Source of the DNA: Escherichia phage RB49
Reading direction: 5' to 3' (one strand)
Sequence record: NC_005066.1
DNA: 64,000 nucleotides
Part shown: positions 12,373 to 59,748 of the stretch, in pieces
How the letters are laid out: each line of letters begins with the position of its first letter
How positions within the stretch are numbered: the stretch's first letter is position 1
Notes under the pieces: generated by a model
What the model was told of the DNA's origin: nothing
Database searches by the model: none
What the model saw: the letters and a program-made list of their open reading frames with translations, nothing else
Made by a program: the position numbers and the translations under genes

Positions 12373-14424
12373 TTACATTTTAAATTTATCTGGCATTGCG
12401 TCTACAGATACCAGATCAGCGATAAGCTGACGTAGAGTTGCCTTATCTGCTTTCTTACGTTCGGTTTTAGCTTCGCTAATGAAGCTGGAGAAAGACAGGT
12501 CAGAAGCAGGTTTAACAACACCTTCACGGATGAATGCATCACCGTCCGCGATCATCTCGCCAGATTCTTGTAATGCTGCCAGTTCATTTTTGTTCATAAT
12601 ATGTGCCTCAATGTAATAAGTTTCTTGTGAATCCGTCGATGCCGTAGCACGAGTTACCGTATCAAAGGATAACACAACACCGCGAGGAAGTAAAATCTCG
12701 CATTCTTTGTAAGCAAATGCTTTGTTACCTACTGGCAAGACAGGGATGTTTTCCGCGCCAGCAATGGAGAAAGCAACATTGGCGCCACCTTCACCGCGAG
12801 AGCCAGCCATAGAATCAACACCAGCAACGGCACTAGCCACGTTTGCATTCCAGCCGCCAAAAATGTTAGGTGCAAGGGAAGTGCTCACATAGTTTTTAAA
12901 GTAAAACGCTTTTTGCTTACGTGCAGTTTCCCACATTTGCGACCGGAAGTCCATACCACGATACAGAATAGTACCCGGATCAAGTTTAACGCCATAGTTG
13001 GAGAAGGCATTATCCAGTGCATCGCACATCTTGACCAATTCTTCTGGATCTGATATGCCTTCAAACTCTTCCAGCTTGCGGTCGGTTAGGAAGTTGTTCA
13101 TATTGATGTATGCTGCATCGGCATATTCGCTCAACACAAAACCTTCCGCGCCTGGCAGATCAAGATCAATATCTGCCATCATTTCACCCATGTTGCTAGC
13201 AATTGCTTCAAACATACCGGAAGCAACATTACGTAGGGCATCGGTTTTAATCTGGGTGATATGACTACGCAGCATTTCAGCTTTTACATCTGCTGGCATA
13301 GACTGGTCTACTCGATCCATTGCCAGGGCGGTGATCTTGTTTTCGAATACTTCCTCGCTCATGATTTCTTTTAAGCGTTTGACCGAGGCTGCGATAACTT
13401 CCGCAGACAACGGATCATATTGATCCTGAACTTTTACCAGTTCGCTTACTGCGTATTTTGCATCGGCTTCGCTTTCAAAAATAGTACGCATGAAACCATA
13501 GCGAGTGATAATATCACTTGTCCAGTCATTCAGAGAACGGGCGGTTGAACGTTCTAAGGCTTGACGGTCAATCAGAGTATTAAACTGTTTCTTAGGTTCG
13601 GCTTCGGTGATATCTTCTTCCGGTTTAAGATTAATTTTTTCTGGATGATTCACATAGTCGCTGTTATAGGTCGCTTGAGTTTTCAGCATTTCTTCTTTAG
13701 TCAAACGAGATTTAGCCGCTACGCGTTGTTCTGCTTCCGCGTTTCGTTCTTCTTCTGACACAAGACTAGCCGCATACGCTTCATCTTTAGTCAGAGATTC
13801 ACCAGTAGCCTTAGATACCCAGCGATCACCTAAATCACTTTCTACTTTAGTGAACAAGGATTCATCAAGTTTAATCCCTTTAATCTTATCAATCGCCATC
13901 CCGCGACGCTTGACAACAACTAAAGCGATCTTTTTGCTGGTCATTACTTCCTGCTGGAATACTTCAAACTTCGGTGTACGACGCACCAAACGCTCTATAA
14001 CGCGCTTAACCAGTTCGGTCTTACCTTTCATGCGGGATACGTTAAAACGGAACATAACAGCGTCTAATTGCGATTTACGGGCTGTTTCCATAACCACATC
14101 AAAAGCACTTGCCATGACTGCAATCGGGTTATCGCCTAGACCATTTTTAAGCTGTACAATACGACCGCTTTTGTTCATTTCGCACAGTACAACATGTGCG
14201 GTCTTGTCACCCATACGAATGATTTTAGGTGTTTTGTTGGTGAAGTTACAAAGACGGACAATCACATCTTTATCGCGTGTCTGTACTGCAAAAAGCTGTT
14301 TAGGATTCTGCTTAGGCTTTAAGCACTGTACCGGAGCAATACTGCCAAAGTTTTCTTCCTCTTCCGTCAACAGCCATTTCTCGAAAGATTCAATCATTAG
14401 ATCGTCGATTTCTAAGTTAAACAT
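12373..14424 (-). CDS. alt: Alt RNA polymerase ADP-ribosyltransferase
   Basis: 683 aa (T4 Alt 682); YRGMDF, FKNYVSTSLAPNIFGGW, ECEILLPRG. Confidence 0.9.
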   Translation of the reverse strand: MFNLEIDDLMIESFEKWLLTEEEENFGSIAPVQCLKPKQNPKQLFAVQTRDKDVIVRLCNFTNKTPKIIRMGDKTAHVVLCEMNKSGRIVQLKNGLGDNPIAVMASAFDVVMETARKSQLDAVMFRFNVSRMKGKTELVKRVIERLVRRTPKFEVFQQEVMTSKKIALVVVKRRGMAIDKIKGIKLDESLFTKVESDLGDRWVSKATGESLTKDEAYAASLVSEEERNAEAEQRVAAKSRLTKEEMLKTQATYNSDYVNHPEKINLKPEEDITEAEPKKQFNTLIDRQALERSTARSLNDWTSDIITRYGFMRTIFESEADAKYAVSELVKVQDQYDPLSAEVIAASVKRLKEIMSEEVFENKITALAMDRVDQSMPADVKAEMLRSHITQIKTDALRNVASGMFEAIASNMGEMMADIDLDLPGAEGFVLSEYADAAYINMNNFLTDRKLEEFEGISDPEELVKMCDALDNAFSNYGVKLDPGTILYRGMDFRSQMWETARKQKAFYFKNYVSTSLAPNIFGGWNANVASAVAGVDSMAGSRGEGGANVAFSIAGAENIPVLPVGNKAFAYKECEILLPRGVVLSFDTVTRATASTDSQETYYIEAHIMNKNELAALQESGEMIADGDAFIREGVVKPASDLSFSSFISEAKTERKKADKATLRQLIADLVSVDAMPDKFKM

Positions 14425-14465
14425 TTTATATCCTCTAGTTGATAACCTATAAACCTATATTTATG

Positions 14466-14490
14466 AAAAGGGGGCTTAACGCCCCCTTTA
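14466..14490. terminator. hairpin terminator between small early gene and alt
   Basis: AAGGGGGC-ttaac-GCCCCCTT with flanking T/A runs. Confidence 0.5.
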
Positions 14491-14703
14491 TTATAATGCA
14501 CCATCGAGCAATTGCTCTAAGGTGTATCCTGAATAGTCTTTTTCAATCAGGGTATATTTTCCTACTCGTTTAATCCAGCCACGCATTTCAACGTATTCTG
14601 CGTAGTTGATGGTGCGAGTTGTTCCATCTTCTAGCAAAGCAGTACCGATTTCGTTAATGCGGTCATAAGTTACGTCGGTAATGATGATTTCGATGTTAGC
14701 CAT
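14491..14703 (-). CDS. small early protein (70 aa)
   Basis: Track ORF preceded by PeSL cassette with GGAG RBS. Confidence 0.6.
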   Translation of the reverse strand: MANIEIIITDVTYDRINEIGTALLEDGTTRTINYAEYVEMRGWIKRVGKYTLIEKDYSGYTLEQLLDGAL

Positions 14704-14774
14704 TTGATACTCCTTAGTAGTTCGTTTCGGTATGGGTGTATTATGATATACACCCTCTGTTATGTCAACAACTT
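14704..14774 (-). promoter_or_regulatory. PeSL-like early promoter cassette (-35 TTGACA, -10, 5' UTR with SD)
   Basis: Conserved tcgtttcggtatgggtgtattat...tgtcaacaactttt (plus-strand reading). Confidence 0.65.
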
Positions 14775-14954
14775 TTAGAACATTTTTGAAATTAATTCTG
14801 CTTTGATTTCGCAGAGAACATCTAAAGATTTCTCGTCACCTGCTTTTGCGGCTTCTGTTTGCATTTTTGAAATGGCTTCAATGTCAGTGCAATTATAAGC
14901 CGCTTGAACTTTAGCGATTGCGATGATTGCCGATTCGATGGTTAAGTGTTTCAT
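14775..14954 (-). CDS. small early protein (59 aa)
   Basis: Hand-translated ORF MKHLTIESAIIAIAKVQAAYNCTD... below track cutoff; preceded by PeSL. Confidence 0.5.
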   Translation of the reverse strand: MKHLTIESAIIAIAKVQAAYNCTDIEAISKMQTEAAKAGDEKSLDVLCEIKAELISKMF

Positions 14955-15022
14955 GTTTGATTCTCCTTTCGTTTCGGTATGGGTGCATTATAGGGGATCG
15001 GTGACCCCCTGTCAACAACTTT
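14955..15022 (-). promoter_or_regulatory. PeSL-like early promoter cassette with stem-loop
   Basis: gattctcc...gtttcggtatgggtgcattat AGGGGATCGGTGACCCCCT gtcaacaactttt. Confidence 0.65.
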
Positions 15023-15541
15023 TTAGTTATTTTTTAATTGTTCATCTTGCAATAATGCAATCACATGCTGGCGATGTTCTTCCGATTGAGACACACCGAA
15101 AAAGTTTGTTTTGTAGAAATACTCTAATCGGTCTTCTCGTGTGCTCTCTTCCATCATGATCGCGGGTAGTCCGAGATTTCGGAAACGTCGCTTTTCTGCT
15201 GGCGTAAAATCACTGTAATACAACATAGAATCATCATTACAAGCAATGCTAAACTCATCCTTCATAAAGGAGAATATTGCGTTTAAACGCTGTTTACCGT
15301 CCACGATTTCGATCTCATAGCGAGAGCCATCATCAATCTTAGCCATTGCGATAGCACCAACCGGAAAATCATTAATCAGGTTTTCGATAAACATACGTTT
15401 GTTTTCGGTGTCCCATACTAAAGGACGCTGATAATCTGGGTTCATGTTGATATAGCCATCTTCTAACCATGCTTCATAAACAGAGATAACAAAGTTTTTA
15501 GTATTGGTATAGTAACGGCGTTTAGGCGTTAAACGGTTCAT
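15023..15541 (-). CDS. DUF262 (ParB-like nuclease/NTPase domain) protein
   Basis: Motifs PDYQRPLVW, FPVGAIAM, VDGKQRLNAI; start placed at ATG with AGGAG RBS (track ORF begins at upstream TTG). Confidence 0.7.
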   Translation of the reverse strand: MNRLTPKRRYYTNTKNFVISVYEAWLEDGYINMNPDYQRPLVWDTENKRMFIENLINDFPVGAIAMAKIDDGSRYEIEIVDGKQRLNAIFSFMKDEFSIACNDDSMLYYSDFTPAEKRRFRNLGLPAIMMEESTREDRLEYFYKTNFFGVSQSEEHRQHVIALLQDEQLKNN

Positions 15542-15542
15542 G

Positions 15543-15872
15543 TTATAGTCTCCTGAATGGATCATCACGTAAATCAATATCTTTTAAGAACTCATCCCAT
15601 GAATGGCGGATATTGTTCTTAATTCTCCAGATAAGAGCAGGGATTGAACGCTCTCCCATCTGGAAGTATGGATCATATGATCCGTATGCCCAATATGCTA
15701 CTACAATTCCACAATCAGCGCAATAGTATTCTATTTCACTTGCTGGCGACCAAAGTCCATCAATATGATCGGTGATCTTGCTTTCGATGTTATGGCTATG
15801 ACAATCAGGGCAACGGATGCAATGACCTTGTTTATCGTAATTTGACGTTAGCGAATACTTAAACAATCTCAT
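15543..15872 (-). CDS. Zn-ribbon protein (109 aa)
   Basis: CIRCPDCHSH ... CADCG cysteine pairs; TAATG overlap with upstream gene. Confidence 0.6.
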   Translation of the reverse strand: MRLFKYSLTSNYDKQGHCIRCPDCHSHNIESKITDHIDGLWSPASEIEYYCADCGIVVAYWAYGSYDPYFQMGERSIPALIWRIKNNIRHSWDEFLKDIDLRDDPFRRL

Positions 15873-16588
15873 TATAGATCCTTATTTGCTTCAAATACTG
15901 CCTTTGCGAATCCTCGCGGGGTAAGTGACCTGATAGTCTTTGTTTTCGTTCCTTTCCCGCCTAGCTTAGAATGCTGTTTACTGTACCCTTTATTAATCTG
16001 CAAAGGTTTCTTTTCTGGCATTATAAAGCCTTGTCCGGTCCATAAGCAAGTCTTTTTCGGGTACATATCACGGGCGGCAATATACTCAGGAAAAGTAGGA
16101 TGTTTATCATCTTCCGGCAAATAACCGCCATATTCCCACGGATGGAACATATAATCAGGCTTACGCCACATGCTAGAGATAACGCTTACAGGATTCTCTA
16201 TCATGTAGGGAACTCCTATCCATTCACCCAAATAAGCGGTTATTTTAGCTGCCCTTACATCATGAACTTGAATCAATGGTCCTTGTTCTAGTTTCTTTCG
16301 TTCAAAGTGCGCAGCGCCACTAACAGCTAAATTGGTGCACGGTGGGAATGCAAAGATAATATCCGGTTTCCCCCATTCAAGGTCCATTGCTCTTTCCAGC
16401 CAGTTCAAATCAATCCAGGTGTTTACATAGGTAATGTTTGGATGTTCAAATCTGGTATTATATTTTTTGTATGTACCGTGGTCGCCATCGTCAGCATTAA
16501 AGCAGATCACCTTATGACCCGCTTTAGCCCATTCTAACCCCATTATCCCCGACCCGTCAAAGTTGCAGAATATTAATTTTTGTTTCAT
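15872..16588 (-). CDS. C5-cytosine DNA methyltransferase-like protein (238 aa, short)
   Basis: Motif I-like FCNFDGSGIMG..AG, motif IV-like FAFPPCTNLAVSGA, motif VI-like MIENPV. Confidence 0.55.
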   Translation of the reverse strand: MKQKLIFCNFDGSGIMGLEWAKAGHKVICFNADDGDHGTYKKYNTRFEHPNITYVNTWIDLNWLERAMDLEWGKPDIIFAFPPCTNLAVSGAAHFERKKLEQGPLIQVHDVRAAKITAYLGEWIGVPYMIENPVSVISSMWRKPDYMFHPWEYGGYLPEDDKHPTFPEYIAARDMYPKKTCLWTGQGFIMPEKKPLQINKGYSKQHSKLGGKGTKTKTIRSLTPRGFAKAVFEANKDL

Positions 16589-16830
16589 ATACGCCCCTTT
16601 AATCCAACACAGATTTTAGAAGGTTCTTTGCCGTGCCACATTAAGTAAAGTCCGTTAATGCGGCCTTGTTTTGTATATGATTCTTTTCTGATCTTCTTAT
16701 AGTGTCGTGTTTCCTCTACCGATTGTTTAGAATACCAATCATAAAGGAAGAGGAACAAAGGCCAACCATTAGCAACCTTAATGCAGTTATTCAAAAATTC
16801 CTTATTTCGTTTAATTAATTTTCTTTTCAC
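16585..16830 (-). CDS. small basic protein (81 aa), GTG start overlapping upstream stop
   Basis: Track ORF, 4-nt overlaps on both sides. Confidence 0.5.
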   Translation of the reverse strand: MKRKLIKRNKEFLNNCIKVANGWPLFLFLYDWYSKQSVEETRHYKKIRKESYTKQGRINGLYLMWHGKEPSKICVGLKGRI

Positions 16831-17078
16831 GCTGCCCCCATTGGTTTGATAGTAACAGAATCTAAAAGACCTTTGTTAGCCAGTTCGCGGCAAGTTTTCA
16901 GATCCGCAACTTCCCAGCCAGCCGCAATCAGGTTATCAATGAGGCTGTTAGCAACTTCTTCGCTCATGAAAGAGCACTGTTTGCCGATGGTGTAGCGTAC
17001 ACGCTGTAATTTCAGTTTACGGAAGCCTTTAACGTTCAGGTCTTTAGCGATTTTCTTTGCGGTTTCGATGTTAGCCAT
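16827..17078 (-). CDS. small protein (83 aa), first gene of 5-gene operon
   Basis: Track ORF, ATG preceded by PeSL with GGAG RBS. Confidence 0.6.
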   Translation of the reverse strand: MANIETAKKIAKDLNVKGFRKLKLQRVRYTIGKQCSFMSEEVANSLIDNLIAAGWEVADLKTCRELANKGLLDSVTIKPMGAA

Positions 17079-17158
17079 TGTTTGATTCTCCTAAGTGGTA
17101 TCTCGTCTTGATGGTTGTATTGTAGGGGAGTTATCCTCCCCTGTCAACACTTTTTATA
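17079..17158 (-). promoter_or_regulatory. PeSL-like early promoter cassette
   Basis: gattctcctaagtggtatctcgtcttgatgg...GGGGAGttatcCTCCCC tgtcaacac. Confidence 0.65.
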
Positions 17159-17161
17159 AAA

Positions 17162-17329
17162 TTATTTGTTAATTTCTGGTGCGTTGCTAGGATAGTAACC
17201 TTCTTTAACTCCGAGGTATTTCGCAACCATCCCTACAATCTTCTGTGCTACTACAATGTCAAATTTCAGATAATCTTCGCCGTGGGTTTCAACGATATAT
17301 GCTTCACATGCTGCTTTAGTCTCGAACAT
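17162..17329 (-). CDS. small protein (55 aa), paralog of 21488..21655
   Basis: MFETKAACEAYIVETHGEDYLKFDIVVAQKIVGMVAKYLGVKEGYYPSNAPEINK; ~85-90% nt identity to second copy. Confidence 0.65.
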   Translation of the reverse strand: MFETKAACEAYIVETHGEDYLKFDIVVAQKIVGMVAKYLGVKEGYYPSNAPEINK

Positions 17330-17400
17330 TTTGATTCTCCTATTTCGTTTCGGTATGTGTGTATTATAGGGGATCTCCCGATCCCCGTCAACAACTTTTT
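17330..17400 (-). promoter_or_regulatory. PeSL-like early promoter cassette
   Basis: ttgattctcc...tcgtttcggtatgtgtgtattat AGGGGATCtcccGATCCCC gtcaacaactttttt. Confidence 0.65.
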
Positions 17401-17404
17401 TAGA

Positions 17405-17881
17405 TTATTTGCACCACACTGTAATTTTCTTATCATGTTGGTAGTGAATCCATCGAATATCATCTTTATCAATCATGACAGTAACATACCCATTTACTAG
17501 TGATTTGTCAAAACGGTTATGTAACAGTGCAATATATTGAAAGAATGGTTCTTTTGTATTTGAATATATTCCCTTACCATCAAACGTCATGACATTTTTG
17601 TGAACTTTAAATTCATTACGAAGAACAGCCGTCATTGTCCCGTCTTCATTAGTTTTGAGTTTTAATTCGGATTCTTTGTAAAAATATGCGTCACGGGCTT
17701 TACTTTCTTCCCCGTCTTGTACTCTTACTTCACTAGCATAATCACACTGATAGGTCTTATCTACATTTTCGATCTTTTCTTGTGTCATATCAAAAAGCGG
17801 TGCGACCTTTTTCTTGGCCGCGTGTGCTACGTTGGTCATGGACAGTGCTGCAACAACCGCAATAGCAATAATCTTCTTCAT
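17405..17881 (-). CDS. secreted protein (158 aa) with signal peptide
   Basis: N-terminal MKKIIAIAVVAALSMTNVAHA signal sequence. Confidence 0.6.
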   Translation of the reverse strand: MKKIIAIAVVAALSMTNVAHAAKKKVAPLFDMTQEKIENVDKTYQCDYASEVRVQDGEESKARDAYFYKESELKLKTNEDGTMTAVLRNEFKVHKNVMTFDGKGIYSNTKEPFFQYIALLHNRFDKSLVNGYVTVMIDKDDIRWIHYQHDKKITVWCK

Positions 17882-17946
17882 AGTATTCTCCTTTTGTTTT
17901 GTGTTGGGAGTATCTTAGCGACACTCCCGTTATTTTTCAAATCTTT
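17882..17946 (-). promoter_or_regulatory. PeSL-like variant (stem-loop GGGAGTATCTTAGCGACACTCCC, no canonical TTGACA)
   Basis: SD-complement ggagaata plus hairpin in intergenic region. Confidence 0.35.
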
Positions 17947-18228
17947 TTATTCGTGATTAGTTTCGATGTTGTGCATTTTGCACCAGTTCAACCAATCGCC
18001 CAGATCTTGATAGTTGATGCTTTTATCTGCTGCCATCGTTTTTGTCTTGATACCCATATGTGCGTTATGAGTAAGCATTTTTACAGTGAACTCAATTTTA
18101 TCACCTTTAGCTTTAACATCAACCAGTTTGGTCCACTGGCTACCAGCGCCGCGAATGTTCATACCAACGATGTTTCCGATGTATGCTTCTTTGTTTTTCA
18201 GGATTTCGGTTGCTTTGATGAATTTCAT
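17947..18228 (-). CDS. small protein (93 aa)
   Basis: Track ORF preceded by PeSL. Confidence 0.55.
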   Translation of the reverse strand: MKFIKATEILKNKEAYIGNIVGMNIRGAGSQWTKLVDVKAKGDKIEFTVKMLTHNAHMGIKTKTMAADKSINYQDLGDWLNWCKMHNIETNHE

Positions 18229-18297
18229 TTTTGATTCTCCAGTTCGTTTCGGTATGGGTGTATTATGCTATGTTCTTACTTTGGTGTCAACAACTTT
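18229..18297 (-). promoter_or_regulatory. PeSL-like early promoter cassette
   Basis: tttgattctcc...gtttcggtatgggtgtattat...gtgtcaacaactttttt. Confidence 0.65.
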
Positions 18298-18567
18298 TTA
18301 GATATTTTCAGAAATAAATTTTAAAACTTGACGTAAATGTTTCTCATCTTTGATAGTCGCCGGAAGTTCTTCTTTTACTTCCTGTGCAAGATAGATATTT
18401 CCGTTCCAAGTGAAAGATCCGTCTTCGTTTACGCGATAGCTGAACATCCACTCGCAATCATTTTCGATTTCATATACACACAGAAGGGTGTAATCGTTAA
18501 AGCTAGTGATTTCAAGGTCGAAGCCGTGACGTTTTGCAAAGTTGGTAGTGGTTTTAGTCAGTGCCAT
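18298..18567 (-). CDS. small protein (89 aa)
   Basis: Track ORF preceded by PeSL. Confidence 0.55.
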   Translation of the reverse strand: MALTKTTTNFAKRHGFDLEITSFNDYTLLCVYEIENDCEWMFSYRVNEDGSFTWNGNIYLAQEVKEELPATIKDEKHLRQVLKFISENI

Positions 18568-18650
18568 TGTTTGATTCTCCTAAGTGGTATCTCGTCTTGA
18601 TGGGTGTATTATGCTATAGTCGTGATCTGGTGTCAACAACTTTTTTAAAT
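18568..18650 (-). promoter_or_regulatory. PeSL-like early promoter cassette
   Basis: Shares 31-nt gattctcctaagtggtatctcgtcttgatgg with cassette at 17079; tgtcaacaactttttt. Confidence 0.65.
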
Positions 18651-18658
18651 TTTTGGAA

Positions 18659-18689
18659 ATAAAAAAGCCGACACTAAGGTCGGCACATT
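18659..18689 (-). terminator. intrinsic terminator
   Basis: GCCGAC-actaag-GTCGGC hairpin; T6 on minus strand. Confidence 0.7.
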
Positions 18690-19001
18690 TTAAAAATTCT
18701 TGCTATATATGCAAGCCTCATAATCTAGAGGATGACCGCCAATCCTACCAGGCTTAATATTCCAACCGCATCGATATTTTCTGACCATGCTAACCGTTTC
18801 GGTTCTTAGAGCATTTCTTTGCAAATCATACCCCCTAAATTCTTGTCTATAAGGACAGTCCGCTTTGCAAGTTGGCGGTTCTACGTCATTTAGCGGGTCG
18901 GAAGCAGTTGGCTTTATTATCAATTCTTTGTTTGCAATAATCATAAGCACATCCCATTGAAGACAATTTAACATCTTCGCAATAAGTGTTGAATCCGTCA
19001 A
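18690..19001 (-). CDS. Cys-rich protein; overlaps upstream ORF by 116 nt, probably starts at internal ATG or is joined by frameshift
   Basis: Track ORF begins at TTG; internal ATGs at ~18974 and ~18944. Confidence 0.35.
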   Translation of the reverse strand: MTDSTLIAKMLNCLQWDVLMIIANKELIIKPTASDPLNDVEPPTCKADCPYRQEFRGYDLQRNALRTETVSMVRKYRCGWNIKPGRIGGHPLDYEACIYSKNF

Positions 19002-19077
19002 ATACGATCACTTCGTATTTGACTCCATCAGCGATAGCTTTTACTTTATACCATCCATGCTTGTATAAAATCTTCAT
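18886..19077 (-). CDS. small Cys-rich protein (63 aa)
   Basis: ATG with GAGGAAA RBS directly after PeSL. Confidence 0.5.
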   Translation of the reverse strand: MKILYKHGWYKVKAIADGVKYEVIVFDGFNTYCEDVKLSSMGCAYDYCKQRIDNKANCFRPAK

Positions 19078-19150
19078 CTTTATTTCCTCAATCTCGTTTC
19101 GATGGGTGTATTATGCTATAGGCTAGACCAGGTTGTCAACAACTTTTTTA
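19078..19150 (-). promoter_or_regulatory. PeSL-like early promoter cassette
   Basis: tcgtttcgatgggtgtattatgctat...ttgtcaacaactttttta. Confidence 0.65.
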
Positions 19151-19162
19151 ATTTTTTGGGAA

Positions 19163-19190
19163 ATAAAAAAGCCGACGCTAAGGTCGGCTA
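19163..19190 (-). terminator. intrinsic terminator
   Basis: GCCGACgctaagGTCGGC hairpin with T7 on minus strand. Confidence 0.7.
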
Positions 19191-19196
19191 ATAAAA

Positions 19197-19505
19197 TCAT
19201 TTGGACAAATAATCATTCTGTGCAATCCGGTCGGCGTATGCTGGTGTTATGTCAATCGCCAGCACTTTAACGCGTGCTTTCTTGCGACCTGGGTTTTCTC
19301 GTAACCAGTGCTCATGACCGTGAACATTTTTATACTTTGATGCTTCTTCAAATGTACGGATCGGACCTGGGTAATCAGCGTAAAGGATCTCTAGGTCTTC
19401 GGTGATGTAAAAATATACATCGTAATTACTGTTCTCTAGTTTAAGCAGAGAGTTGCGAAATTGTGGTAAATTCTCGCGGGTAAATTCAACTACAAGATTT
19501 TTCAT
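19197..19505 (-). CDS. H-x-H-W family small protein (member 1)
   Basis: HGHEHW ... VLAIDI motif shared with five neighbouring ORFs. Confidence 0.6.
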   Translation of the reverse strand: MKNLVVEFTRENLPQFRNSLLKLENSNYDVYFYITEDLEILYADYPGPIRTFEEASKYKNVHGHEHWLRENPGRKKARVKVLAIDITPAYADRIAQNDYLSK

Positions 19506-19529
19506 AGTGATATCCTCATTCAGATAGAT

Positions 19530-19552
19530 TAAAAGGGGCTTAACGCCCCCCG
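19530..19552 (-). terminator. intrinsic terminator
   Basis: GGGGC-ttaac-GCCCC hairpin followed by T4 on minus strand. Confidence 0.5.
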
Positions 19553-19556
19553 TATA

Positions 19557-19844
19557 TTAAAACAGTCCTTCCTGTACACCGTAGTAGAGTTCGTCACTGA
19601 TAATTTCATTAATGCGACGGTGTGCATATTCCTGATTTGCGAAGTTATCAGCAAGTTCTACTTTAGTTTCGCCGTCATGAGTCCATTTAGTGATAACTTT
19701 ACCATCTGCAAATTTGAAGTTGAACTCTTTAGCTACTGCATCGCGTACCAGACGTGCGAACTTGTTGTTACGGATGGCATTATCGGTTTCGTGTGCAGCG
19801 TGAGCGAATTTGTTAACTTTCAGAGTGATAGTAATGTATGCCAT
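19557..19844 (-). CDS. small protein (95 aa)
   Basis: Track ORF preceded by PeSL. Confidence 0.55.
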   Translation of the reverse strand: MAYITITLKVNKFAHAAHETDNAIRNNKFARLVRDAVAKEFNFKFADGKVITKWTHDGETKVELADNFANQEYAHRRINEIISDELYYGVQEGLF

Positions 19845-19925
19845 AATTTGATTCTCCTAGTTAGAAAGTGTATCTCGTTTCGATGGGGATATTATGCTAT
19901 ATCCCCGATCCGGTGTCAACACTTT
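19845..19925 (-). promoter_or_regulatory. PeSL-like early promoter cassette
   Basis: aatttgattctcc...tcgtttcgatggggatattat...GGGGATattatgctatATCCCC...gtgtcaacac. Confidence 0.65.
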
Positions 19926-20219
19926 TTATAAAATAATTTTTTGATATTTTTCTATGATGTTTGTGTAGGTCACGTCAACCGCTAGCACCGTTGCTTCGAA
20001 TCCACCGTTTAGCCAATGGCTATGATCATGATCGTGAAAGAAACCTAGACCAGTACGAAGACCTTCTTTATATTCTGCGCGTACATTCAGTTTGTCGTCG
20101 ATAAACAGATAAAACCATGAATTTTTACTAGGATTGATGATACAACCTTTCAGATTAGGAAGAATATCACGACTAAGAATAAACTTATCACCTACTTTGA
20201 ACATAATATTAGTCCTCAC
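19926..20219 (-). CDS. H-x-H-W family small protein (member 2)
   Basis: HDHDHSHW ... VLAVDV. Confidence 0.6.
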   Translation of the reverse strand: MRTNIMFKVGDKFILSRDILPNLKGCIINPSKNSWFYLFIDDKLNVRAEYKEGLRTGLGFFHDHDHSHWLNGGFEATVLAVDVTYTNIIEKYQKIIL

Positions 20220-20529
20220 TTATAAGGTCAAACCAATTGTTTTTCGCATAATGCTTAATGCGTGCTTGATCTGCTTCCGCTGGTGATAGATTCCATGCAA
20301 CCACTACAACTTCTGACGCATCGTCATCCGTTTCTGATACCCAATGATTGTGATTCATACAGTTATTTGCTATCGAGTGAGCAAATGATTTCATCACTGG
20401 AGACGTATAATCATAGTAACGGATTTTCAGATTTTCATCAACGTACAAGTAGATCGTATACGGCTTATATTCAGTAACCAGTAACAGACAGTTACGCAAT
20501 TCTGGGAAAATCTTTTTAGTTAATTTCAT
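20209..20529 (-). CDS. H-x-H-W family small protein (member 3)
   Basis: NHNHW motif; N-terminus parallels member 1; start at ATG with GAGGA RBS. Confidence 0.55.
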   Translation of the reverse strand: MKLTKKIFPELRNCLLLVTEYKPYTIYLYVDENLKIRYYDYTSPVMKSFAHSIANNCMNHNHWVSETDDDASEVVVVAWNLSPAEADQARIKHYAKNNWFDLISED

Positions 20530-20530
20530 T

Positions 20531-20749
20531 TTATAATCCTCGGTCTCGGCTATAGTACACGGTACGCCATACAATTTCATGTTTCGTGTCGCTCCAGCAC
20601 ACGATCTCATTTACTCTTAAATCTTTGTTATCAACAAAAGATGAACATTGTGACGCTTCTTTCATCATTTTATCTGCTGTTTTCTCATCAAATACAGCAC
20701 AGATTTCTTTATACACTCGATAATCTTTGAATTGACTCTGAATACCCAT
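20531..20749 (-). CDS. small protein, tandem paralog A (KMMKEASQC motif)
   Basis: FKDYRVYKEI...KMMKEASQCSSF parallels next ORF; start moved to internal ATG. Confidence 0.5.
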   Translation of the reverse strand: MGIQSQFKDYRVYKEICAVFDEKTADKMMKEASQCSSFVDNKDLRVNEIVCWSDTKHEIVWRTVYYSRDRGL

Positions 20750-20972
20750 AATTAACACCATTCCAACCAATTGTTTTTGAGAAAACGTTTATCCACTGTT
20801 GAGTGTAGCATGTTTCTTTCCATGATACAATACGAGTGGAATAATGGTTTTTGTTTCCAGAAAAGGACGGGCATTTTGATGCATCTTCCATCATCTTTTC
20901 GGCGAACTCTGGTGCGTATACTCGCAGGATCTGTTGATATGCTTTGTATTCTTTAAATTTGCTCATAATCAT
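20709..20972 (-). CDS. small protein, tandem paralog B (KMMEDASKC motif)
   Basis: KFKEYKAYQQIL...KMMEDASKCPSF. Confidence 0.5.
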   Translation of the reverse strand: MIMSKFKEYKAYQQILRVYAPEFAEKMMEDASKCPSFSGNKNHYSTRIVSWKETCYTQQWINVFSKTIGWNGVNYGYSESIQRLSSV

Positions 20973-21231
20973 TCACTACCTTATCAGCTTCTTTTGTTGT
21001 TTTTACATCAACTGCGATAACTCGTAAAGGTTCGTCATGGTTCCACCAGTGGTCATGAATATCAGCTTGTGATTTATCACCAAAGGAATCACGAATATCA
21101 TTTTTACATTTATAGCTAATGTGACCTTCATAGTCAACATAAAGGTAATTATCGAAAATCGGCGTTTTTAAGATCATACCGAAAAATCTTTCTTTGTGTG
21201 TCTTATCCAGCGTTGCAGTAATTCGCATCAT
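20953..21231 (-). CDS. H-x-H-W family small protein (member 4)
   Basis: DIHDHWW ... VIAVDV. Confidence 0.6.
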   Translation of the reverse strand: MMRITATLDKTHKERFFGMILKTPIFDNYLYVDYEGHISYKCKNDIRDSFGDKSQADIHDHWWNHDEPLRVIAVDVKTTKEADKVVNDYEQI

Positions 21232-21243
21232 AATATATTCCTC

Positions 21244-21423
21244 TTAGAAAGGGATGGTCATTTCTTGAGCTTGTACATTCTCGTTAGGATTAAACTTCAT
21301 CCAGCCGATATTGTCTACCAGCATATGCACATTTTTATCATATCCTACGTGAGTAGTCAACACTAAATGTGCTTTACCTTCAATGATGAGTTCCATGTAC
21401 TTCTGAACTTCGATAGCTTTCAT
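21244..21423 (-). CDS. small protein (59 aa)
   Basis: Hand-found ORF MKAIEVQKYMELIIEGKAHLVL... directly after PeSL. Confidence 0.5.
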   Translation of the reverse strand: MKAIEVQKYMELIIEGKAHLVLTTHVGYDKNVHMLVDNIGWMKFNPNENVQAQEMTIPF

Positions 21424-21487
21424 TTTGATTCTCCGTTTGTTGTCTTGATGGGAGTATCTTACTACTCCATTTAATCATTGTCAACTA
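21424..21487 (-). promoter_or_regulatory. PeSL-like early promoter cassette
   Basis: gattctccgtttgttgtcttgatgGGAGTAtcttacTACTCC...ttgtcaactat. Confidence 0.6.
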
Positions 21488-21655
21488 TTATTTGTTAATT
21501 TCTGGTGCGTTGCTCGGATAGTAACCTTCTTTAACACCTAGATATTTTGCAACCATTCCGGTGATCTTCTGTGCTACTACGATATCGAATTTCAGGTAGT
21601 CTTCACCGTGGTTTGCTACAATGTATGCTTCGCATTCTGCTTTAGTCTGGAACAT
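21488..21655 (-). CDS. small protein (55 aa), paralog of 17162..17329
   Basis: MFQTKAECEAYIVANHGEDYLKFDIVVAQKITGMVAKYLGVKEGYYPSNAPEINK; track ORF is extended into the PeSL. Confidence 0.65.
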   Translation of the reverse strand: MFQTKAECEAYIVANHGEDYLKFDIVVAQKITGMVAKYLGVKEGYYPSNAPEINK

Positions 21656-21723
21656 TTTTGATTCTCCTATATCTCGTTGGTATGTGTGCATTATAGGGGA
21701 TCACCGATCCCCTGTCAACAACT
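21656..21723 (-). promoter_or_regulatory. PeSL-like early promoter cassette
   Basis: tttgattctcc...AGGGGATCaccGATCCCCT gtcaacaacttt. Confidence 0.65.
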
Positions 21724-22017
21724 TTATAATGCTTTATATGCGTATTTCATAAATTTGTCTGCCACTTCATTGGCATGTTCAGATTCTACGCCTGATTCGA
21801 GAACAATAGCTAGGTCGGTTTCGTCATTCCCGCCGTACCAATGATTTGATGTTCGATTTTTTTCAATTGGAAATTGGTCACTTTTATCTGTGCGACAAAA
21901 TACATCTAAATGCTCGTCGATGTAAAAGATCCAATCTTCATAAAGAATAACGGTATTAGCAAGATTTTTATTGCCTTCAACGAAAGGTTCCGCGACAAAT
22001 AGCTTAGTTTGTTCCAT
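21724..22017 (-). CDS. H-x-H-W family small protein (member 5, divergent)
   Basis: NHWYGG...AIVLESG; start at ATG with GAGGAAA RBS. Confidence 0.5.
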   Translation of the reverse strand: MEQTKLFVAEPFVEGNKNLANTVILYEDWIFYIDEHLDVFCRTDKSDQFPIEKNRTSNHWYGGNDETDLAIVLESGVESEHANEVADKFMKYAYKAL

Positions 22018-22033
22018 AGTAATTTCCTCAAAA

Positions 22034-22225
22034 TTATACAGTTTCGTAAACTTCCCAATGTTCAGCGCCAACACGCTTAACGAAAAGGTTTTCTTTGATG
22101 TTATTCATAAACGTCTGGATGGATTTAATGCGGTTTGAAGGTTTCCATTCTTCGTTGGCATTGCGTCGATACATCATAACATTACCAGTTCGCTTATATT
22201 CAGCAACCATTTTAAGACCACACAT
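22034..22225 (-). CDS. small protein (63 aa)
   Basis: Track ORF, GAGGA RBS. Confidence 0.5.
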   Translation of the reverse strand: MCGLKMVAEYKRTGNVMMYRRNANEEWKPSNRIKSIQTFMNNIKENLFVKRVGAEHWEVYETV

Positions 22226-22282
22226 AATATTATCCTCAATTTGTGGGAGAGTATTACCCCTCCCAATGATTGTTATGTTATA

Positions 22283-22603
22283 TCACACAAAATGGCGTGT
22301 CAATGCTTCTTTTGCGGTTCCGCTAAGACTTTCAATCTCGCCTGGCATAACATCAACCGCCAGAACTTCTACAACATCCTCGGACCCTAACCAGTGAGTA
22401 TGGCCTTTGTAGAACTTGATAACCAGACCACCTTCCTCGTCCCATTTAACGCTATCGCTAGCCCACCACACATCACCGTCGATAAAGTTGATGTAAAGCA
22501 CACTACGCCACATTGAATTAATTACTTTCAATACTGCGCCTTTCATCTCTTCCACGGTATGGTCTTCCATTTTGAAGACCTCACCTACCTGAACTTTTGC
22601 CAT
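22283..22603 (-). CDS. H-x-H-W family small protein (member 6)
   Basis: GHTHWLGSEDVVEVLAVDV. Confidence 0.6.
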   Translation of the reverse strand: MAKVQVGEVFKMEDHTVEEMKGAVLKVINSMWRSVLYINFIDGDVWWASDSVKWDEEGGLVIKFYKGHTHWLGSEDVVEVLAVDVMPGEIESLSGTAKEALTRHFV

Positions 22604-22620
22604 TTAGTCACCTCTCTTTA

Positions 22621-22800
22621 TTACATAACAATCACGCCAGCCGTTGAAAGTTGATGTTTCAACTGAGCATTTTCTGCTACCGTCAAATCAATGATTTCTT
22701 GTGACGCTGCAATCATATAGCCATTGGTGATATTGTTTTGCATCAGTTCAATGGTTTCTTCGTTGTAGCGGATTTTAGCGATGATTTCGTTGAAGTTCAT
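22621..22800 (-). CDS. small protein (59 aa)
   Basis: MNFNEIIAKIRYNEE...; track ORF is extended into the PeSL. Confidence 0.55.
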   Translation of the reverse strand: MNFNEIIAKIRYNEETIELMQNNITNGYMIAASQEIIDLTVAENAQLKHQLSTAGVIVM

Positions 22801-22872
22801 AATTGATTCTCCTAGTTCGTTTCGGTATGTGTGTAGTATAGGGGATCGGTGATCCCCTGTCAACAACTTTTT
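22801..22872 (-). promoter_or_regulatory. PeSL-like early promoter cassette
   Basis: aattgattctcc...tcgtttcggtatgtgtgtagtat AGGGGATCggtGATCCCCT gtcaacaactttttt. Confidence 0.65.
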
Positions 22873-23202
22873 TTAAAGTTTTTCCATGATAACGGTCATA
22901 ATTACATCTTCTGCGCGAGCTGTCAGATTATCAGCGTCAGCATGTGGGCGGTTGGTTGTTACAGAGATAACACCGTTGCGCACTGGTTTGATATTGATAT
23001 CAAGATGATCCGCGAAACGTTCGTGATCCGCGAAACGTTCGCCAGTTACAGAATGAATTTTGGTGTTAAATTCTTTTGCCAGTGCCTTGCGAACTTCACG
23101 AATCAGGATAGCGTTTTTCAGTTGGTTCTCCGCGCTCATGGTCTTCTGGGTGTTCATGGTTCCGTCGAAGTCAATCATTGGCAGCGTTACGATGTATTTC
23201 AT
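22873..23202 (-). CDS. small protein (109 aa) containing in-frame duplication ERFADH-ERFADH
   Basis: Track ORF preceded by PeSL. Confidence 0.55.
   Translation of the reverse strand: MKYIVTLPMIDFDGTMNTQKTMSAENQLKNAILIREVRKALAKEFNTKIHSVTGERFADHERFADHLDINIKPVRNGVISVTTNRPHADADNLTARAEDVIMTVIMEKL
23007..23042. repeat. 18-bp perfect-to-near-perfect tandem duplication inside coding sequence
   Basis: gatccgcgaaacgttcgt / gatccgcgaaacgttcgc, adjacent. Confidence 0.8.
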
Positions 23203-23285
23203 TTTTGATTCTCCGTTTAAGAAAGTGTGTTTCGTTTTGATGTGTGTAGTATAGGGGATACGTGATCCCCTGTCAACAACTTTTT
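23203..23285 (-). promoter_or_regulatory. PeSL-like early promoter cassette
   Basis: ttttgattctcc...AGGGGATacgtGATCCCCT gtcaacaacttttttg. Confidence 0.65.
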
Positions 23286-59677: not shown

Positions 59678-59748
59678 CTTTGATTCTCCTTTTGTCTGGT
59701 ATGGGTGTATTATGTAGTGTTGGATTCTGTAAGTCAACAACTTTTTAA
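59678..59748 (-). promoter_or_regulatory. PeSL-like early promoter cassette
   Basis: tctttgattctcc...tctggtatgggtgtattat...aagtcaacaactttttaaa. Confidence 0.65.

Follow-up and report, generated by a model that had tools for sequence, protein, structure and literature searches.

Introduction

The genomes of the phages RB49 and phi1 contain promoter-early stem-loops (PeSLs), promoter-terminator cassettes that flank and shuffle non-core ORFs and ORFans in hyperplastic regions (Arbiol et al. 2010, PMC2839356), and for which both promoter and terminator activity have been reported (PMC2839356). In this study, we analysed five minus-strand genes that lie between two such cassettes at positions 15,023 to 17,078 of a 64,000-nucleotide stretch of Escherichia phage RB49 DNA (sequence record NC_005066.1), which as a whole is referred to here as the window. 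Two of the genes encode a short C5-cytosine methyltransferase homologue and a protein consisting of a single DUF262 domain, and an earlier reading of the same DNA (the original prediction) had proposed that the five together could be a DNA-modification or anti-restriction module. Our comparisons of the genes and their neighbourhoods revealed no sign of functional coupling between them and indicate that their combination is lineage-specific.

A phage methylase of the same family has been studied experimentally. Retron Ec86 is triggered by the 711-bp dcm gene of K42, a phage closely related to KarlJaspers (Bas06), and when that gene was expressed alone the amount of 5-methylcytosine (5mC) on multicopy single-stranded DNA (msDNA) rose, as measured by liquid chromatography-mass spectrometry, and the retron was activated; a C82A/E128A/K175A/K176A mutant was inactive (bioRxiv 10.1101/2023.08.16.553469). 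The CCWGG target ascribed to the K42 enzyme was taken from the host Dcm, and its support comes solely from mutagenesis of the motif in a dcm+ background (bioRxiv 10.1101/2023.08.16.553469).

Cytosine modification has also been described among the Krischvirus relatives of RB49. A 2026 paper reported that DNA of the Krischvirus phage SAP contains 5-hydroxymethyldeoxycytidine (5-hmdC) and glucosyl-5-hmdC. Its 99.96%-identical relative TB34 was described as unmodified, and no pathway for the modification was identified. According to the same paper, TB34 DNA contains only canonical cytosine by high-performance liquid chromatography (HPLC), with no detectable bulk modification, and Krischvirus is without homologues of dCMP hydroxymethylase and glucosyltransferase. 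TB34 was not restricted by the modification-dependent nuclease BrxU, an insensitivity that the authors ascribe to its unmodified DNA. In addition, RB49 DNA is known to be cut by the restriction enzymes HpaII and NheI.

Results

Gene layout and distribution of the five genes

The window derives from a Krischvirus genome (RB49-like or "pseudo-T-even", of T4 type), as its region 14700-17500 was matched by 54 phage records, including the Krischvirus phages LF73P4, TB34, Phi1 and JSE, at 95-99% identity over at least 80% of the length, and the DUF262 gene of RB49 was 99.4% identical to the window copy. All five genes are on the minus strand. Gene 1 (16827-17078, ATG start, phrog_14908) and gene 2 (16585-16830, GTG start, phrog_7065) encode proteins of 83 and 81 amino acids (aa), respectively. 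They are followed by gene 3 (15872-16588, phrog_757), predicted to encode a short orphan Dcm-like C5-cytosine DNA methyltransferase of 238 aa, gene 4 (15543-15872, phrog_2993), encoding a four-cysteine zinc-ribbon protein of 109 aa, and gene 5 (15023-15541), encoding a stand-alone DUF262 (GmrSD_N) protein of 172 aa from the ATG at 15541.

The distributions of the five genes, determined by tblastn among 50,697 phage records, were unrelated to one another. Homologues to the methylase were found in 1,519 records, among them Drexlerviridae, Dhillonvirus, Vequintavirus, Klebsiella siphoviruses, T5-like phages and others. The DUF262 protein had counterparts in 299 records, from Krischvirus, RB16-like and other large phages of Klebsiella, Enterobacter, Cronobacter and Citrobacter, and some P22-like phages. 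The zinc-ribbon protein was found in 91 records (Krischvirus, Nonagvirus and a few others) and the 81-aa protein in 67, including T5-like and jumbo phages, whereas the 83-aa protein is an ORFan confined to the 55 Krischvirus records in which it was found. Outside Krischvirus the genes have different surroundings: in Dhillonvirus and Vequintavirus the methylase gene has replication genes around it, and in Hanrivervirus it is among small hypothetical genes beside a putative helicase gene, while the Nonagvirus zinc-ribbon gene and the RB16 DUF262 gene are each among unrelated small genes. A gene of equal length adjoining the RB16 DUF262 gene was considered as a possible zinc-ribbon gene and was ruled out by its translation.

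The same independence was evident when gene neighbourhoods were compared in both directions on viral contigs, using 80 DUF262 loci and 80 methylase loci and a radius of 6 kb. By tblastn together with a family hidden Markov model (HMM), other genes of the operon were detected near two of the 80 short DUF262 loci, both of them on Krischvirus contigs, and the methylase, zinc-ribbon, 81-aa and 83-aa genes were near none of the remaining 78. Likewise, a single methylase locus of the 80, again on a Krischvirus contig, had another operon gene within reach, and none of the 79 non-Krischvirus loci did. No neighbours of the short DUF262 genes were conserved across lineages, those present being lineage-specific.

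Even within Krischvirus the block is not indivisible. On a metagenomic Krischvirus-like contig (L007, 4519-4980) the 81-aa gene has been precisely deleted, with its GTG start joined to codon 2 of the methylase gene, and the 5' part of the 83-aa gene also differs. The junction reads as a clean case of recombination at coupled stop and start codons, and it identifies gene 2 as a dispensable gene, at least as far as can be judged from the contig. The conservation of gene order in the approximately 55 Krischvirus genomes carries little weight, since all of them are at least 95% identical.

Each of the five open reading frames called in the original prediction is present at its coordinates, and pN/pS values of 0-0.31 (against TB34, ECD7 and a metagenomic relative) indicate that all five are real coding genes under purifying selection, with gene 1 having values of 0-0.15. 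The genes are also tightly packed, although not entirely as had been proposed. Overlaps of 1-4 nt were expected at every junction and exist at three: GTGA between genes 1 and 2 (4 nt), ATGA between genes 2 and 3 (4 nt) and TAATG between genes 3 and 4 (1 nt). The last junction, between genes 4 and 5, is instead a 1-nt spacer (TAA-c-ATG), with an AGGAG Shine-Dalgarno sequence 8 nt upstream, and the last protein is 172 aa rather than about 173 aa long. An alternative 184-aa open reading frame for gene 5 begins with a TTG that is used neither in annotated relatives nor in homologues. We agree with the original prediction that this combination of genes is not part of the T4 core.

The methyltransferase homologue

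The 238-aa protein matched the "DNA methyltransferase" family phrog_757 from end to end (residues 1-237, E = 7.4e-90). Its match to the Pfam family DNA_methylase (PF00145) was below threshold (13.2 bits against a gathering cut-off of 22, E = 0.059, residues 10-93), and NCBIfam gave no match to the protein. An alignment of 32 homologues with 56-64% identity to the protein revealed that the residues of motif I (F10, G12, S13 and G14), motif IV (P82, P83 and the catalytic C84) and motif VI (E131, N132 and P133) are invariant, and that a C-terminal stretch, I219-R-S-L-T223-P-R225-G, is invariant or nearly so. In the stretch Y176-P-K178-K179, K178 was invariant or near-invariant, whereas K179 was not conserved throughout. 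Between W141-R142-K143-P144 and R220-SLTPRG, and hence between motifs VIII and IX, there is a region of about 70 residues (roughly 150-218) that is strongly conserved in the family and that lies where a target-recognition domain would be expected.

These assignments were supported by structural comparison. The AlphaFold model of the protein (pLDDT 90.8) had the catalytic domains of DNMT3A and DNMT3B as its best matches among solved structures (E = 4e-6 to 7e-5), followed by DNMT2, with TM-scores of only 0.43-0.51, and its best matches among viral structures were phage cytosine methylases. At the level of the fold, the model is thus a class I S-adenosylmethionine (SAM) methyltransferase closest to the DNA C5-methyltransferases. 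The protein has 55% identity over its full length to the KarlJaspers Dcm (bas06_0055; E = 3e-92), and the four residues mutated in the K42/KarlJaspers enzyme, C82, E128, K175 and K176, align with C84, E131, K178 and K179.

By these sequence and model comparisons, the 238-aa protein is a member of the C5-cytosine methyltransferase family and, within it, of a group with demonstrated DNA C5-methylase activity. This upholds the homology named in the original prediction, whose quoted motifs FDGSG, FPPCTNLAVSGA and ENPV, together with DYQRP and DGKQR of the DUF262 protein, are all present, at positions that are invariant or nearly so within the respective families. Its further suggestion, that the protein is too short for a canonical methyltransferase, proved mistaken. 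The family comprises 7,310 database matches of uniform length (219-260 aa) and is present in the 1,519 phage records noted above, and its 55%-identical member produces 5mC when expressed alone, so 238 aa is not too short. Nor is the gene new, as many Krischvirus records already label it Dcm or DNA methyltransferase, and it has been mentioned in a comparative paper.

We also considered whether the enzyme could be a sequence-nonspecific methylase that modifies all cytosines, and rejected this possibility. The cutting of RB49 DNA by HpaII and NheI, together with the presence of only canonical cytosine in TB34, indicates that the methylase is not a global modifier of cytosine, and the conserved region of about 70 residues is a further point against such an activity.

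What the enzyme recognises is less certain. As CCWGG was assumed for the K42 enzyme from the host Dcm, we treat the recognition motif of the family as unsettled. The retron Ec86 experiments were performed in MG1655, which is dcm+, and the level of 5mC on msDNA was low without the phage enzyme (bioRxiv 10.1101/2023.08.16.553469). The host Dcm should already methylate CCWGG in that strain, yet msDNA 5mC was low, and the phage enzyme may therefore differ from it in the target cytosine or in the form of its substrate. A separate observation concerns the window itself, in which CCWGG, the site of the host Dcm and of EcoRII, is under-represented: 29 sites were present, compared to 51 +/- 7 in dinucleotide-preserving shuffles, with at least 29 sites in all 100 of 100 shuffles. 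This scarcity is consistent with CCWGG-directed restriction having selected against the site in the past, irrespective of whether the phage methylase protects it.

The stand-alone DUF262 protein

The 172-aa protein had a strong match to Pfam GmrSD_N (DUF262, PF03235; E = 4.8e-20, 73 bits against a gathering cut-off of 33.2), and it also matched the profiles of the defence proteins NsnA and PD-T4-2_A, both of which contain DUF262. Word-indexed homologue searches with this protein and with the zinc-ribbon protein gave almost no matches, and sequence searches of the Protein Data Bank with the same two proteins returned nothing significant. An exhaustive HMMER profile search with the DUF262 protein identified 5,881 cluster representatives at E<=1e-3, 334 of them at E<=1e-10. 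Many of these relatives are likewise stand-alone proteins of 160-185 aa, and in a second group, of 250-290 aa, the domain is C-terminal and is preceded by an extension of about 120-130 aa in which no Pfam domain was found. The extended relatives include P0142-P0153 and similar proteins, and one 563-aa relative (P0209) fuses DUF262 to the Schlafen domain AlbA_2.

Conservation among the stand-alone proteins is concentrated in the motifs of the domain. In 36 homologues, with identities down to about 28%, residues Y37, Q38, R39, W43, G82, Q84 and N146 were invariant, and the remaining residues of the DGKQR motif, D81, K83 and R85, were at least 90% conserved. The structural model of the protein had high confidence (pLDDT 95.5) and was matched by Foldseek to the nucleotide-binding domains of ParB, Noc and PadC and to BrxU with a probability of 1.00, to sulfiredoxin with 0.99 and to SspE with 0.57. 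The original assignment of the last gene to DUF262, with a ParB-like fold, is hence well founded. However, the domain had been noted as best known from the N-terminus of GmrSD-type modification-dependent restriction enzymes, and no DUF1524/HNH nuclease domain was present in the 172-aa protein, whose chain ends right after DUF262; profile searches also detected no nuclease domain in any of the five proteins. The DUF262 protein alone therefore cannot be a GmrSD-type restriction enzyme. As modelled, it is a complete DUF262 domain of the ParB/sulfiredoxin (Srx) fold without a nuclease domain, and the retention of every nucleotide-binding residue suggests that it is probably an autonomous NTP-dependent switch or enzyme.

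The zinc-ribbon protein and the two small proteins

The zinc ribbon named in the original prediction was confirmed in the 109-aa protein, which has four cysteines in two pairs (C18-x2-C21 and C51-x2-C54) and weak matches to Pfam zinc ribbons. Comparison with its Nonagvirus homologue revealed that the cysteines are conserved and the histidines are not. We considered whether this protein could be a degenerate HNH nuclease that completes a split GmrSD, a possibility that was rejected on account of the unconserved histidines and the lack of any match to an HNH profile.

Profile searches with the 81-aa and 83-aa proteins gave no informative matches. The 81-aa protein is basic. In the case of the 83-aa protein, PADLOC linked residues 12-75 weakly (E = 2.6e-5) to the RT_UG35 profile of defence reverse transcriptases, over positions 722-785 of 938; this match could be due to chance or could represent a fragment-like mimic of a defence protein.

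The PeSL cassettes

The five genes lie behind one PeSL and are followed by another, as had been predicted. The upstream cassette (17119..17157, minus strand) has the -35 element TTGACA at 17147-17142, a stem-loop GGGGAG-gataa-CTCCCC at 17141-17125 and the -10 element TACAAT at 17124-17119, giving 11 of 12 matches to the promoter consensus with the stem-loop held in the 17-nt spacer. The downstream cassette (14987..15021, minus strand; promoter 15015-14987) consists of TTGACA, the stem GGGGGTCACCGATCCCC and TATAAT, and matches the consensus at all 12 positions. No terminator-like site was found on the minus strand between the two. The upstream PeSL is presumed from its sequence to be the early sigma-70 promoter of the five-gene unit, and the downstream PeSL presumably both terminates that unit and drives transcription of the next gene (14775-14954, 59 aa).

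Cassettes of this type are frequent in the window, with 10 found compared to 0.08 expected. All ten (AAGTTGTTGACA, 17 nt, TATAAT) are on the minus strand; nine cluster between 14.7 and 23.3 kb (14740-23282) and the tenth is at 59709-59743. The cluster marks a hyperplastic region made up of units of a single or a few genes. Most PeSL units in it carry one or two genes, whereas the unit described here carries five. Just downstream of the cassette region is a large gene (12373-14424, minus strand) that is the RB49 ADP-ribosyltransferase homologue and is annotated as such in TB34.

Comparison of the locus in SAP and TB34

Across the region corresponding to 14400-17700, all five coding sequences are identical in SAP and TB34, and the block therefore does not explain why the DNA of one phage is modified and that of the other is not. 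The two sequences differ by a 79-nt tandem duplication of a PeSL, by one intergenic base and by an artefact at the end of the alignment. The duplicate PeSL of SAP is just downstream of the DUF262 gene (L002, 1306-1384; window position about 15004), where TB34 and the window have a single copy, and the extra base of SAP is near window position 17395. The published comparison of SAP and TB34 was based on calling of single-nucleotide polymorphisms and may have missed the 79-nt indel. With identical coding sequences and differences that are solely intergenic, the operon was rejected as the cause of the difference in modification.

Discussion

The locus is probably a PeSL-bounded early cassette of independent accessory genes, including an orphan methylase, a stand-alone DUF262 protein and others, that have been packed together by one phage lineage. 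Such a cassette would be transcribed by host sigma-70 RNA polymerase starting at the upstream PeSL and stopping at the stem-loop of the next one, and the five small proteins would be co-translated through the overlap or abutment of successive stop and start codons. The product of gene 3 would then use SAM and a Cys84/Glu131 mechanism to introduce 5mC at a specific short motif, which by analogy with the K42 enzyme is probably CCWGG-like, in replicating phage DNA whose cytosines are otherwise unmodified. That 5mC may protect the DNA from methylation-sensitive restriction enzymes, with triggering of retron Ec86 as a side effect or cost. The DUF262 protein, for its part, is envisaged as an autonomous switch that binds or hydrolyses NTPs; it would act on DNA or a partner protein, most likely without involvement of the methylase and as part of the conflict between phage and host. 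Anti-restriction, one half of the role originally proposed for the five genes, would accordingly be the most plausible function of the methylase, whereas we found no support for a new DNA-modification pathway.

Several points weigh against the interpretation of the genes as an independent collection, or limit its detail. The tight coupling of the genes and the conservation of the whole block in approximately 55 genomes are compatible with a functional partnership as well. For the methylase family, the recognition sequence is not firmly established, and the activity expected of the Krischvirus methylases is extrapolated from the related K42 enzyme. In addition, the role suggested for the DUF262 protein is drawn from its predicted fold and conserved residues alone.

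An unlikely alternative is that the DUF262 protein is an anti-defence decoy that mimics and poisons host GmrSD, BrxU or SspE, and that it is co-expressed with the methylase as DNA containing 5mC attracts such enzymes. The protein is of the same domain family and fold as the N-terminal domain of BrxU and SspE, matches the defence profiles NsnA and PD-T4-2_A, and has no nuclease domain. TB34, which bears the operon, is also not restricted by BrxU, but the authors of that work explain the insensitivity through the unmodified DNA of the phage. Furthermore, the nucleotide-binding residues are kept in homologues of as little as about 28% identity, pointing to an enzymatic or switch activity of the protein's own, and most phages with the DUF262 protein are without this methylase. 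An adaptive form of the same idea, to which we give little credence, is that the co-translated DUF262 protein is a nucleotide-binding mimic that heterodimerises with the DUF262 domains of 5mC-recognising GmrSD/BrxU nucleases and disables them, so that methylase and antidote are paired. If this were true, the widespread phage family of 160-185-aa DUF262 proteins would represent a class of inhibitors of Type IV restriction that is new.

It is improbable that the genes form a true functional module in which the DUF262 protein, perhaps with the zinc ribbon, would load the methylase onto DNA, or activate or target it there, as a split version of the phage ParB-methyltransferase fusions and ParB-dependent thymine dioxygenases. 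Such a module would be in keeping with the adjacency and translational coupling of the genes and with the retention of the block in all 54-55 Krischvirus records. There are also precedents for it, in that ParB-fold proteins activate phage 5-methylpyrimidine dioxygenases and the phage ParB-CTPase fold is often fused to DNA methyltransferase domains (PMC13229309, PMC12704722), but those precedents involve PF02195 rather than DUF262. Also against it are the lack of any partner within 6 kb at the 78 DUF262 and 79 methylase loci outside Krischvirus, the solitary position of the methylase family amid replication genes (Dhillonvirus, Vequintavirus) or small hypothetical genes (Hanrivervirus), and the production of 5mC by the K42 homologue by itself. 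The module of the original prediction is thus not borne out, and we return to a cassette of independent accessory genes as the preferred explanation.

The weakest alternative, which we regard as very improbable, is that the block is part of a cytosine hypermodification pathway that would account for the 5-hmdC and glucosyl-5-hmdC of SAP. In its favour, the SAP pathway is unexplained, Krischvirus has no dCMP hydroxymethylase or glucosyltransferase homologues and a C5-methylase could feed a 5mC-to-5hmC route. Against it, the block is identical in coding sequence in SAP and unmodified TB34 (which differ in it by the intergenic PeSL duplication and 1-nt indel), profile searches found no dioxygenase or glycosyltransferase in it, and RB49 DNA is cut by methylation-sensitive enzymes.

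Taken together, these results clear most of the apparent novelty from the locus: the methylase belongs to an abundant and experimentally studied phage family, the promoter cassettes are published PeSLs, and the combination of genes is a packing accident of one lineage rather than a system, with no dedicated new DNA-modification machine indicated. The remaining point of interest is the uncharacterised family of stand-alone DUF262 proteins, a reasonable candidate for functional screening. Its members are encoded by about 300 cultured phages, of which many are T4-like (Krischvirus, RB16-like and related phages of Klebsiella, Enterobacter, Cronobacter and Citrobacter), and occur in metagenomic clusters that number in the thousands. 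The methylase is also of practical relevance, as Krischvirus phages are used in therapy and in collections for defence screening, and a Dcm-like enzyme predicts sensitivity to sensors of the retron Ec86 type and to 5mC-dependent restriction, as well as resistance to some Type II enzymes.

Comparison with known systems

The cassettes that bound the five genes resemble the PeSLs of RB49 and phi1 (PMC2839356; PMC4122927) in every respect considered. Both have a sigma-70 promoter with a G+C stem-loop between the -35 and -10 elements, and both are repeated in a hyperplastic region where they flank small non-core genes. No difference between them was found, and they are apparently the same elements in the same phage genus.

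The methylase is of the same family as the Dcm of K42/KarlJaspers (Bas06), to which it is very close in length (238 versus 236 aa) and with which its catalytic Cys, Glu and Lys-Lys align exactly. The two differ in that the latter is encoded by a siphovirus (Drexlerviridae), where its gene is alone among small genes, and in that the activity, target motif and retron triggering of the window protein are predicted. More distantly, the protein shares with DNMT3A, DNMT3B and the classical bacterial C5-methyltransferases (PF00145) a Rossmann-type SAM fold and motifs I (FxGxG), IV (PC) and VI (ENx), whereas it has a short variable region, of about 70 aa, which is in fact conserved across the family.

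The ParB-dependent thymine dioxygenases and ParB-methyltransferase fusions (PMC13229309, PMC12704722) are comparable to this locus in having a ParB-superfamily domain encoded beside a post-replicative DNA-modifying enzyme. However, their domains are PF02195 and their association is one of conserved co-occurrence or fusion, while here the domain is DUF262, and it accompanies the methylase in a single genus only. Finally, the DUF262 protein shares its domain, a DGQQR-type motif (here DGKQR) and the ParB/Srx fold with the modification-dependent nucleases GmrSD, BrxU and SspE, and it differs from them in its 172-aa length without DUF1524/HNH and in being encoded by a phage rather than by a host defence island.

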